Source of the DNA: Candidatus Poribacteria bacterium
GTDB lineage: Bacteria > Poribacteria > WGA-4E > JAJDTR01
NCBI GenBank assembly: GCA_965222225.1
Contig: CBDCTK010000002.1
Span: 5,280,001-5,344,000 of the forward strand
Length of the DNA: 64,000 bases
Direction: 5' to 3'
Shown: positions 1,214 to 59,759 of the stretch, in pieces
Numbering within the stretch: position 1 is the first letter of the stretch
Layout: each line of letters starts with the position of its first letter
Made by a program: the position numbers and the translations under genes
Notes under the pieces: model-generated
Databases searched by the model: none
What the model saw: only the letters and a program-made list of their open reading frames with translations
Told to the model about the DNA's origin: nothing

Positions 1214-1348
1214 CCTCTAAAAGCCCCAGAGGGGCGGAAGGTGTATAGAAACGTCCAAACCTCACGCACTCAAGCCCCAGCGGGGCGACAGGAAATAGCA
1301 ACTTGAATGCCCAAGAATGGCTTTGTCACCTAATATTCAAACAGGATC
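1214..1348 (+). repeat. REP doublet / MITE remnant; empty homolog of 52963-53196
   Basis: CCTCTAAAAGCCCCAGAGGGGCGGAAGGTGTATAGAAACG...AAGCCCCAGCGGGGCGACAGG...AATGGCTTT...TTCAAACAGG aligns by eye with 52963-53196 once the cassettes are removed. Confidence 0.8.
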
Positions 1349-5194: not shown

Positions 5195-5225
5195 AATATT
5201 TGTTTATGCCGTTATCCTGTTCCAA

Positions 5226-5305
5226 AAGCGAGCGGATAGATCAACTGAGTGAATAGCGAAGGCGATAGAAGATCCGGATAAAAATCCCAGTGCGATAGAA
5301 ATTCC
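5226..5305 (+). repeat. Hypervariable GATCAA...ATCC cassette cluster (nested)
   Basis: Full copy at 5239-5275 inside an interrupted outer copy, plus an extra 3' remnant. Confidence 0.85.
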
Positions 5306-5626
5306 CTTGTCCCGCCGACTTTGCGCGGCGATAAGGCTTCTTACTCCGATCTATACAAGTGTCTTTACTTGACTCAAGCAATCAATGCATTATCGTTTTG
5401 GAGAAGCGGTATAACATACCGGAATAGCACGTTATGTGCGTTGTTTTCGATGGCATGAATAAAGACTGAGACACAGGTAAGCATTATTTGAAACTAAGTT
5501 TTGCGACAATACCGCTGCAAGGTGTGTGAACCCGCATTGCAGCGGTATTTCATTATATCCCTCACCACCTCGTATGATAATTGAATTGTGATTCACCGCA
5601 TCCGATTGAGACACTTGGAGAAGAAG

Positions 5627-6610: not shown

Positions 6611-6938
6611 GCGATAGAGATCCCCTGCACACCAGCCTTTGCCAAAACGACAGGAATACACTTCGTGACCCTCAAGTTAACTCAAGTTGCTACCTATTCC
6701 GGTAGGTTGGCCTTCCAGCCCGACCCACGATCAAACGAGCGAGTAGCGAGTAGCGAGTAGCGAGTGCGATAGAGATCTTCACAGGTTGTATGGCATAAGA
6801 AACCGCTAGATTTTGTACATTTGTAGGGTGGGCGCCGCCCAGCATTTCTTGTAGCGTGCGCACGACGATTAAATGAGCGAATAGCGAACAGGATTTCCTA
6901 TCGCCCTCCCTATCCGGTCGGTTGATCGATAGAAATCC
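6611..6938 (+). repeat. Intergenic mosaic of GTAG-REPs and hypervariable cassettes, including one inverted nested copy
   Basis: 3' fragment 6611-6623; copy 6729-6778; REP 6815-6841; outer copy 6867-6938 interrupted by a minus-strand copy 6891-6927. Confidence 0.85.
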
Positions 6939-17073: not shown

Positions 17074-17106
17074 AAGACCATAGGATAGGTTGTCGAGATA
17101 CTGCAC

Positions 17107-17182
17107 GATCAAGCGAGCGAATAGCGAGTGCGATAGAGATCCTAAGGCGATAGTAAATCCCTTAGTGAGGGCGATAGAAATC
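17107..17182 (+). repeat. Hypervariable cassette (consensus-like copy 17107-17142) plus two 3' remnants
   Basis: GATCAAGCGAGCGAATAGCGAGTGCGATAGAGATCC, then AAGGCGATAGTAAATCC and TAGTGAGGGCGATAGAAATC. Confidence 0.88.
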
Positions 17183-17234
17183 ACCTCATTGCGCGTCTCG
17201 AATCGGCTGTAACATTTGGATTTTTGAAATCGTA

Positions 17235-21942: not shown

Positions 21943-22025
21943 GGTCAAGCGACTGAATAAGGAGTGCGATAGTAGATCCTGATAGAGATCCCAGTGCGAT
22001 AGCTAATCCAGCGCGATGAGTTCCC
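21943..22025 (+). repeat. Hypervariable cassette plus stacked 3' remnants
   Basis: GGTCAAGCGACTGAATAAGGAGTGCGATAGTAGATCC t GATAGAGATCC c AGTGCGATAGCTAATCC. Confidence 0.85.
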
Positions 22026-23490: not shown

Positions 23491-23635
23491 GATCAAGCGA
23501 GCGATTAAGTGAGTGGACAATGAACGATCAAACGACTGAAAAAGGAGTGCGATAGTAGACCCTGATAGAGATCCTTTATGGAGTACGATAGTAAATCCCA
23601 CAAAGGACATGAATAGTGACTGCGATGGAGATTCC
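23491..23635 (+). repeat. Four-level nested cassette cluster
   Basis: Three GAT(C/T)AA starts and four ATCC-type ends that parse as nested insertions. Confidence 0.85.
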
Positions 23636-23929: not shown

Positions 23930-23993
23930 GATCAATCGAGCGGTAAGTGACCGATCAACTGAGCGAACAGCGAAGGCGATAGAGATCCTATTC
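23930..23993 (+). repeat. Nested cassette pair
   Basis: Outer GATCAATCGAGCGGTAAGTGACC followed by a full copy at 23953-23988. Confidence 0.85.
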
Positions 23994-35634: not shown

Positions 35635-35808
35635 GTACATTTGTAGGGTGGGCACTGCCCACCCTTTCTCGTAGAGACCCCGTAGTGACCGATCAGCTGA
35701 GATCAACCGAACGATCAACTGAGTGGATAACGAAGGCGATAGTAAATCCTACAGTGGGGGATCAAGTGAGTGGACAACGAACGCGATAGCTAATCCCGAT
35801 AGAGATCC
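35635..35808 (+). repeat. GTAG-REP followed by a doubly nested cassette cluster
   Basis: REP GTACATTTGTAGGGTGGGCACTGCCCAC; cassettes at 35691, 35701, 35713-35749 and 35760-35796. Confidence 0.87.
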
Positions 35809-52604: not shown

Positions 52605-52916
52605 GATGACCAAGCCGTCGATTGTCCCTAATTATCTTGTCATTCAATCGTTGCTCCTTTCTTCAACTAAGTCAGTGGAAATCAAGAAAGGTAATCCTAC
52701 AAAATTTACGCACCGACCTACGTCAAGAAAAGATGAACTTCGCATGGGGGAGGCAGATGTATTGAAAACACGAAAGTCACAGCAATGGGCAGGACAAGGT
52801 TTAAGGTTTGATGGCGTGCAAACCATCAGCAACTGTTCAGAATTGGTTCGCGCACATTGTTTTATTCTTGAATAACCGCTGACATCCTATCGACAAATAA
52901 ATCGTCGTAACCCTAA

Positions 52917-53196
52917 GAGCCTGTTTGAAAAGTACATTTGTAGGGTGCGCACTGCGCACCAACCTCTAAAAGCCCCAGAGTGGGATCAAGGGAGCGAATA
53001 GCGACTGCGATAGAGATCCATGAAGGTGTATAGAAACGCCAAAACCCCGTGCACCTAAGCCCCAGCGGGGATCAAACGAACGGATAGTGAGTGCGATAGC
53101 AATCCCATAGGTACGTAGCAGGCAACAATTAAGACATGGAAGAACTTCCCACAAATGACCAAAAATGGCTTTCCTATCGATTATTCAAACAGGTTC
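52917..53196. mobile_element. 280-bp MITE (13-bp TIR, TAA duplication) carrying REPs and two cassettes
   Basis: TAA|GAGCCTGTTTGAA...TTCAAACAGGTTC|TAA; cassettes at 52984-53019 and 53070-53105. Confidence 0.85.
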
Positions 53197-53248
53197 TAAA
53201 CGAAGACCGGGGGAATGGATGCAGAGAATTGCAACTCGCCTCAATTCC

Positions 53249-59679: not shown

Positions 59680-59759
59680 GATTAACTGAGCGAATAGATC
59701 AAACGACTGAACAAGGAGTGTGATAGAGATTCCGAGGCGATAGCAATCCCATAGATATC
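59680..59759 (+). repeat. Nested cassette pair
   Basis: Outer GATTAACTGAGCGAATA | inner copy 59697-59733 | GAGGCGATAGCAATCC. Confidence 0.87.

Follow-up and report, generated by a model that had tools for sequence, protein, structure and literature searches.

How did two small hairpins that are intact in one copy of a repeat come to carry, in another, a different short insert each? The question is posed by two stretches of a 64,000-nucleotide window of DNA from a Candidatus Poribacteria bacterium (contig CBDCTK010000002.1, positions 5,280,001 to 5,344,000; plain positions below are those of this window), whose genome comprises 5.70 Mb in two contigs with a G+C content of 0.50. The first-pass annotation had presented window positions 1214-1300 and 52963-53120 as the empty and filled forms of one repetitive extragenic palindromic (REP) doublet, and when the sequence was re-read both stretches were as described and shared one backbone. 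The empty form is CCTCTAAAAGCCCCAGAGGGGCGGAAGGTG...AAGCCCCAGCGGGGCGACAGG (its start is also given as CCTCTAAAAGCCCCAGAGGGGCGGAAGGTGTATAGAAACG). In the filled form each GCCCC-AGN-GGGG hairpin has its own cassette of about 36 nt in the 3' arm, GATCAAGGGAGCGAATAGCGACTGCGATAGAGATCC at 52984-53019 and GATCAAACGAACGGATAGTGAGTGCGATAGCAATCC at 53070-53105. In the window, a degenerate pattern for the cassette gave three matches against 0.00 expected from 100 shuffles, and the GCCCC hairpin motif three against 0.05 expected. The answer that we favour is that such cassettes probably form a family of non-autonomous micro-elements that move as single-stranded DNA and target hairpins.

The two cassettes differ from one another, as had been claimed (stem variants GG-GC/GC-CT and AC-AC/GT-GT), and comparison of their junctions with empty paralogs bears out that neither is accompanied by a duplication and that 2-4 host bases are gone. 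Cassette 1 (52984-53019, plus strand; stem GGGAGC/GCGACT) lies in the 3' arm of hairpin 1, of which the 5' arm, the loop and a remnant of the 3' arm (AGCCCCAGAGTGG) remain at 52971-52983 (plus strand). It replaces the CG of GGGGCG, so that the empty junction GAGGGG-CG-GAAGG becomes GAGTGGG-ATCAA...ATCCAT-GAAGG. Cassette 2 (53070-53108, plus strand; stem ACGAAC/GTGAGT, tail GCAATCCCAT) lies in the 3' arm of hairpin 2, whose 5' arm, loop and 3' arm as far as the junction (AGCCCCAGCGGGG) occupy 53058-53070 (plus strand). Here the best filled/empty pair is available, the empty paralog being a copy of the host repeat with 140 nt of flank at 100% identity. It reads AGCGGGG-CGAC-AGGT where the window has AGCGGGG-ATCAA...ATCCCAT-AGGT; 38 nt (53071-53108) thus occupy the place of the 4 nt CGAC. 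The empty reference at 1214-1300 (plus strand) belongs to a 5'-truncated copy of the same repeat, which extends from 1214 to ~1352 and in which the GCCCC-AGN-GGGGC hairpins are intact at 1223-1235 and 1274-1286.

In the genome, hairpin-1-type sites are filled in 36 cases, with 21 stem variants (14 of the 36 have the variant of the window), and empty in 22, and hairpin-2-type sites are filled in 15 cases, with 9 variants, and empty in 18. Beyond these, 89 and 11 loose matches, respectively, represent neither state. In filled sites the cassette always begins 4-5 nt after CCCCAG. The filled sites therefore hold neither a single ancestral variant nor inserts at random offsets, and the proposal that the cassettes were inserted into the hairpins at a non-random point, in separate events, holds, given the many variants per site and the fixed offset. 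The suggestion that copies follow a run of G was only partly general, as many copies differ at the two bases before GATC; the first of these is G in 55% of copies and the second is C in 48% and G in 36%. The left end is always GATC, regardless of the base that precedes it.

Two further elements of the annotation required revision. [quoted passage not shown] In the window this host repeat spans 52920-53193 (plus strand), 274 nt with its two cassettes, between the inverted ends CCTGTTTGAAAAGT and TTCAAACAGG. It includes a GTAG-tagged REP hairpin, GTAGGGTGCGCACTGCGCACC (52940-52960, plus strand), that is empty here and cassette-filled in many other MITE copies. The genome has 59 copies with both ends, in a base form of 204-206 nt with three empty hairpins, a form of 240 nt with one cassette and forms of 274-282 nt with two. 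In addition, the two insertions were separate events but did not take place at 52963-53120, since the whole MITE is an insertion relative to the closest relative compared (locus L009; neighbour protein 94% identical), which has ~18 nt where the window has 52911-53210. Of the remaining loci alignable on either side of it, L003 likewise lacks the MITE block. The MITE thus reached 52920-53193 with its cassettes already inside. The spacer is free of cassettes in 31 of the 32 orthologous Poribacteria loci, drawn from metagenome-assembled and closed genomes of sponge symbionts, and the remaining one (L001) has one cassette elsewhere in the spacer.

The histories of the two cassettes within the carrier would also differ. 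Since the hairpin-1 cassette is common to many MITE copies, it appears to be old, a single event that was later amplified by the MITE. At hairpin 2, two MITE copies that are otherwise identical differ in the cassette, and a cassette of the same variant, with the same odd tail, occupies that site in another MITE subfamily. Short-tract conversion would therefore explain it as well as fresh insertion, and it may be very recent or may have been gained by such conversion. As judged from these comparisons, the window cassettes represent two separate events in the history of the carrier MITE. In Logan contigs from four of four sequencing runs (X3, X6, X13 and X9), assembly stops at 52943 and resumes at 53170-53173. 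At joints 52980>53023 and 53070>53109 each side spans just 27-30 nt and depth exceeds 1000, so that these joints derive from paralogous MITE copies.

The window cassettes are members of a large family. With a core pattern that allowed up to three substitutions we counted 1134 copies in the genome, with 617 on the plus and 514 on the minus strand of contig C2, the main contig. The consensus is (G)GGATCAA-xyGApq-GRATA-q'p'GAy'x'-GCGATAG-ARATCC(C), 35-38 nt long, and its head, (G)GGATCAA, is kept in 88-98% of the copies. Between head and tail, four variable stem pairs covary, each with 3-4 Watson-Crick types, about a tandem centre whose two positions are G.A in 1048 and A.G in 1081 of the 1134, respectively. 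G.T and T.G pairs are common (269 and 152) while A.C and C.A are rare (16 and 24); pairing is thus maintained on the GATCAA strand only, and this is the one strand that folds. A covariation test on 31 distinct copies from six genomes, with 500 shuffles and slid-partner controls, gave a similar picture: the inner helix is 98.4% paired, both sides change in all four pairs, and the score of 0.561 compares with 0.253 after shuffling (reached by 0 of 500) and at most 0.121 in the slid controls. The outer GGATC/GATCC pairing shows no covariation and is 69% paired.

Within these limits the sequence is highly diverse, with 377 stem variants and 715 distinct 30-nt cores, although T does not occur at position 3 and only pyrimidines occur at position 8. 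The stem pairs are nearly unlinked to one another (at most 0.19 bit), and the tail after GATAG is unlinked to the stem (at most 0.07 bit). We considered whether the variable stem might act as a target guide, and rejected this, as the mutual information between stem and flank is at most 0.07 bit against 0.40-1.08 bit within pairs. Rfam 15 gave no match at the gathering score over the whole window, and none at E<=10 in 52900-53220.

The cassette is a unit that has been copied to unrelated sites. Identical 30-nt cores are found in up to 11 unrelated contexts, and 99 of the 120 multi-copy cores occur in at least two. At least one empty paralogous site exists for 327 of 805 isolated copies. Under strict conditions (flanks at least 94% identical over at least 122 nt) there are 22 filled/empty pairs, one of them at 100%, so that even identical paralogs are polymorphic for the insert. 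A duplication is present in none of the 22, 1-5 nt of host sequence having been lost instead; besides the CGAC described above, the bases replaced in strict pairs are GCG, GCAT or CG. The empty REP GTAGGCGGGGCATCTTGCCCCGCC is present in 12-83 copies in all three genomes of a genus without cassettes, and its abundance there argues that the empty site is the older state rather than a deletion product.

A filled/empty difference was also seen in natural populations. A nested cassette occupies the loop of a host cassette at 35713-35750 (plus strand), and in contigs of runs X13 and X9, which come from different studies, 37 nt are skipped at this position (35713>35751). The X9 skip restores the host loop GGACA, and the left flank of the joint is unique in the genome. 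Between species, the 32 orthologous loci yielded only one filled/empty pair, which lies between two different MITE copies, and flank searches in five syntenic genomes yielded none, the spacers having diverged so far that only a spacer-level comparison is possible. One such comparison concerns window spacer 17074-17234, in which one cassette head is followed by three cassette tails (cassette at 17107-17142, plus strand). Its orthologs (L055, L057, L058, L061, L063) exist in three states in the genus; the spacer is 36-54 bp long and repeat-free in four relatives, and holds a MITE with a cassette in G001.

Insertion has a fixed orientation and offset with respect to the host hairpin. In 147 copies GTAGG is found precisely 8-9 nt upstream, in 43 it is 16 nt upstream, and the mirror arrangement is rare. 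Of the 1131 main-contig copies, GTAG-tagged hairpins hold 240 and GCCCC hairpins 74, and 543 are left unclassified by the patterns. Cassettes also nest in one another, with 232 nested copies on the same strand as the host cassette against 42 on the opposite strand (5.5:1). Host cassettes are entered most often at either border of the loop, midway along the 3' arm and at the 3' foot, in each case directly 5' of a G and with 2-4 nt of host sequence lost. Most clusters (478 of 735) are single copies. Coding regions are avoided, with 3.4% of copies in open frames of at least 300 aa against 60.5% of random sites.

The orientation of the copies follows the base composition of the strands. Skew-positive regions contain 151 plus and 311 minus copies, and skew-negative regions 381 plus and 167 minus. 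The C-rich strand thus carries 68.5% of all copies, or 70.5% when each cluster has one vote (chi-square 94.5) and 67% of singletons. The orientation split is equal in all four arrangements of flanking genes. Since orientation tracks GC skew and not gene arrangement, the bias points to a link with replication rather than transcription. The cumulative GC skew of contig C2 itself changes sign several times, with a minimum at ~2.54 Mb, a maximum at ~0.83 Mb and irregular 280-kb bins, which suggests rearrangements or assembly joins.

The family is confined to a small part of the phylum. Between 185 and 1223 cassette hits each were found in the genome of the window, in all nine other genomes of its genus and in all four of a second genus, which belongs to another family. 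The exact pattern occurs 280-770 times per genome in the genus (ten genomes) and 110-130 times per genome in the second (four); one further genome has 2 hits, the remaining 16 relatives have 0, and a reversed-pattern control gave 0. When one mismatch was tolerated, 17 of the 151 phylum genomes searched gave matches, and none of the 100 in the largest family of the phylum did; the other 134 of the 151 have no hits or a handful. Genome G132 and three others have a few hits each (1-19), on a handful of small contigs, which we read as probable binning carry-over and not transfer. A phage or plasmid vector was rejected: viral contigs gave 0 cassette matches, and four matching metagenome contigs represent one unrelated chance locus in which the "stem" is unpaired.

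Our preferred model, which we regard as probable, is that these are hairpin-targeting micro-elements dependent on a factor supplied in trans. Elements of 35-38 nt would spread by insertion into the apex or 3' side of pre-existing small hairpins, namely GTAG-tagged REPs, the GCCCC REPs of a Y1-transposase element, and other cassettes. The active form would be single-stranded DNA of the GATCAA...GCGATAG strand, folded as two pairs, the tandem G.A/A.G, two more pairs and the GRATA loop. A protein would recognise this fold by its shape, and pairing would in consequence be conserved while the sequence drifted through nearly all allowed combinations. Insertion, or survival afterwards, would be tied to replication, giving the 70:30 strand bias. 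By analogy only, the leading candidate for the mobilising enzyme would be a trans-acting HUH (Y1) nuclease. Judging by the recombined stems and tails discussed below, cassette-to-cassette conversion clearly occurs as well.

A more specific version of the model may be offered tentatively, as a possibility that we hold to be somewhat doubtful: a shape-coded single-stranded-DNA micro-transposon consisting of a single short hairpin built on a tandem G.A platform, in which an enzyme would excise or copy the cassette at its GATC ends and paste it into hairpin tips at the replication fork. If only shape were read, the family would be expected to spread over almost the whole neutral network of stems, as the number of variants and the lack of linkage between pairs suggest.

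Some Y1 genes do lie near cassettes. In G000 and in the second genus, several have cassettes within ~150 bp (one of these is a truncated pseudogene), although no Y1 ortholog is consistently flanked by them. An IS200-like Y1 transposase gene, a 165-aa frame at G000 C2:3080258-3080752 (minus strand), is flanked, in inverted arrangement, by the GCCCC-AGN-GGGGC hairpins plus ACAGGT of the MITE interior, with cassettes on both flanks. A pseudogene resembling those of REP-associated tyrosine transposases (RAYTs), with an in-frame TAG, lies at G000 C2:3088937-3089347 (plus strand) and has GTAGGAGCGATCTCCAGGTCGCGA / GTAGGAGC REPs on both sides. As GCCCC hairpins and GTAGGAGC REPs flank such genes, the host hairpins are true REPs.

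Several results weigh against the model. Energy-model folding gave no stable fold (z = -0.19 and 0.14), the stem being too short. Polymorphism in populations was seen at one locus only, that at 35713, in short contigs whose sides measure 58 and 69 nt. No enzyme could be tied to the cassettes by searches with Pfam Y1_Tnp and RVT_1 or for larger elements, and Y1_Tnp genes are found in 25 of 31 relatives, cassette-free genera included. An autonomous parent with cassette ends was rejected as a candidate, since the genome yielded no more than 14 orphan heads and 8 orphan tails, all of them degenerate nested forms or MITE-interrupted cassettes. A reverse transcriptase as mover was likewise rejected: RVT_1 hits are patchy (11 of 31 relatives, with none in 3 of the 9 genus genomes and 2 of the 4 second-genus genomes), and the only hit in the genome of the window is AbiA-like. 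This last is a 670-aa AbiA-type defence reverse transcriptase at G000 C2:4499563-4501599 (minus strand; PADLOC AbiA/DRT, E = 4e-76).

The strand bias is a further difficulty. By the usual rule the leading strand is G-rich, so that a folding strand found mostly on the C-rich strand would lie on the leading-strand template. The active strand of IS200/IS605 elements is the lagging-strand template, which is the opposite polarity. Instead of insertion, the bias could reflect loss of copies or inheritance from the host hairpins. Finally, one site holds different stems with one identical tail, and tails are unlinked to stems, so that partial-unit conversion fits better than simple copy-and-paste; and much of the copy number represents hitch-hiking on MITEs and REPs.

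These last points raise the alternative that no dedicated transposition is involved, the cassettes having spread by hitch-hiking on REPs and MITEs together with short-tract conversion or template switching between hairpins that share GATCAA and GCGATAG blocks. The commonest variants are indeed on MITEs (one core has 45 copies, 36 of them in one context), and a single variant accounts for 14 of the 36 hairpin-1 fillings. The exchange of stems above the same odd tail at one site, recombinant MITEs, a tandem unit with arms from two neighbours and the entry of a REP and cassette into a gene as a single 66-nt block are all in keeping with such a process. However, the left junction is at GATC whatever host base precedes it, and hence there is no microhomology there; identical cores occur in up to 11 unrelated contexts; and insertions are found in cassette-naive hairpins (the CGAC, GCAT and GCA sites), whereas conversion requires a cassette to be present already. 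We therefore consider this an unlikely account of the family.

A small structured RNA or a single-stranded DNA of the multicopy (msDNA) type, if a reverse transcriptase copied it and broken hairpin tips captured it by retro-insertion or repair patching, would accommodate strand-specific folding with tolerance of G.T (G.U), a precise left end, a ragged right end and the loss of few host bases. Hairpin tips are, moreover, sites of structure-specific nuclease cleavage. Nevertheless, the patchiness of RVT_1 and the AbiA-like nature of the only hit in this genome count against it, as do the independence of orientation from transcription and the lack of a poly-A or other priming signature, and we regard it as improbable.

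We give very slightly less credence to a functional motif selected by the host, such as a protein-binding site, terminator or RNA element, for which spread would be secondary. The structure is strongly conserved with base-specific limits, is intergenic and has been retained in two genera. Against this, orientation is unbiased with respect to neighbouring genes, nesting three or more deep destroys host copies, copy number varies 6-fold between genera, orthologous spacers are wholly different and Rfam has no match even at E<=10. That the cassettes are instead ancestral parts of the hairpins and the "empty" sites deletion products is most improbable, for although deletions between cassettes occur (for example, in 154-nt MITE forms), empty hairpins are perfect palindromes, one site holds many variants, and the abundance of GTAGGCGGGGCATCTTGCCCCGCC in all three genomes of a cassette-free genus contradicts it.

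Among known systems the cassettes most invite comparison with the small dispersed repeats (SDRs) of cyanobacteria. To our knowledge, mobile DNA below ~100 nt is barely documented, and these repeats are the one precedent family. SDR1-8, reportedly described by Elhai et al. in 2008 (Genome Res 18:1484) from heterocyst-forming cyanobacteria, are tiny lineage-restricted dispersed modules; like the cassette they are inserted precisely inside another repeat (SDR5 in particular), and have no known function or mobilising enzyme. SDRs range from 21 to 27 nt and the cassette from 35 to 38 nt. The target of SDRs is the HIP palindrome and their hosts are cyanobacteria, whereas the cassette enters hairpin tips in Poribacteria. 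Passages of later papers describe SDR5 as a 21-nt module inserted between bases 3 and 4 of HIP1, and the function and insertion mode of SDRs as still unknown (PMC4390886, PMC5861425, PMC13756078). By the usual definition, a 21-27-nt module in HIP1 or heptamer repeats of Nostocaceae, the cassette is not an SDR. A HIP1-like palindrome as its original target was also rejected, GGGATCCC being present 71 times against 86 expected and no 8-mer palindrome being over-represented.

The cassette shares with the REP, BIME and REPIN repeats that accompany RAYT genes (PMC2817692, PMC3116915, PMC3733652) the character of a ~35-nt structured extragenic high-copy repeat, and the host hairpins here are GTAG-tagged, with Y1 genes flanked by such hairpins. 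It is a short, extragenic, high-copy palindrome, albeit a weak one, but its stem is made of 2+2 pairs around a tandem G.A and is not a GC-rich palindrome; REPs enclose it, it inserts into its own copies, and REPs occur without it in another genus. It has no GTAG or CGTC tag of its own, the GTAGG belonging to the host hairpin upstream. Nor does it qualify as a MITE, as the GGGATC/GATCCC pairing of 4-6 bp shows no covariation and no target site is duplicated.

IS200/IS605 elements and their miniature derivatives are alike in lacking a target duplication, in recognising a hairpin on one strand and in an orientation linked to replication. They differ in that the cassette has no conserved 5' target tetranucleotide (bases -4 to -10 vary), loses host bases and has one hairpin rather than two. 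Insertion sequences of the IS1397 type (cited in PMC3116915) also use the tip of a REP hairpin as insertion site, but are full-length elements with a transposase and target duplications, while the cassette is a 36-nt non-coding unit. The attC sites of integrons conserve structure while their sequence varies, and fold one strand into the active form, much as the cassette would; they measure 57-141 nt against 36 nt, and the cassette has neither R/L core boxes nor cassette genes. Clustered repeats of the CRISPR kind differ again, in that 478 of the 735 cassette clusters are single and the lone tandem array has constant linkers and variable hairpins. No literature on such repeats in Poribacteria was among the matches listed. 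Within the scope of these searches the cassette is undescribed, and it represents a new family of a rare, poorly understood kind, the separation from SDRs being drawn from partial descriptions of the latter.

Other copies in the window comprise a nested copy at 5239-5274 (plus strand) and those at 6892-6927 (minus strand), 21943-21978, 23526-23561, 23953-23988, 35760-35795 and 59697-59732. Around the first of these, the window has 393 bp (5195-5587) where G005 and G003 have ~1.1 kb between the same anchor genes (L055, L059); this longer stretch reads as largely coding, and the remnant of its 3' end is found in the window, G001, G002 and G009. The lone tandem array lies at G000 C2:1578335-1578637 and is built of five 38-nt units (GATCAA-[hairpin]-GCGATAG-TCTTGTAG), no two of which share a hairpin; in one unit the 5' arm is that of one neighbour and the 3' arm that of another.

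Some cassettes lie within open frames. About 47 are inside long open frames (at least 250 aa) without introducing a stop. The 66-nt block, a GTAGGAGC-type REP plus cassette, is in frame in an 853-aa open frame (G000 C2:699468-702026, minus strand), where the cassette core occupies C2:701604-701631 and the cassette part reads GAINRADNEGDRD (loci L078, L079, L080 and L082). The block is absent from the G001 and G002 orthologs, and G005 has it with 15 nt more. Another cassette, at residue 1300 of a 2431-aa frame (G000 C2:2917916-2925208, minus strand), is read in antisense as GITIALPIRSLDP.

The cassette thus behaves as a mobile element that would be among the smallest known, and extends SDR-like behaviour to sponge symbionts of an unrelated and uncultivated phylum, for which the internal evidence is much richer. 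Its mechanism is open to test with synthetic oligonucleotides and a few candidate nucleases. Were the shape-coded version of our model correct, the cassette would be attC-like but a third as large, a minimal mobile unit of bacteria that nests in itself, and would follow a new targeting rule, the hairpin apex, 5' of a G. For the genomes themselves, the ~1100 copies, together with REPs and MITEs, explain the intergenic breaks in short-read assemblies, and provide a ready marker for strain typing. Occasionally, they add 12-22 in-frame codons to the proteins of these bacteria.

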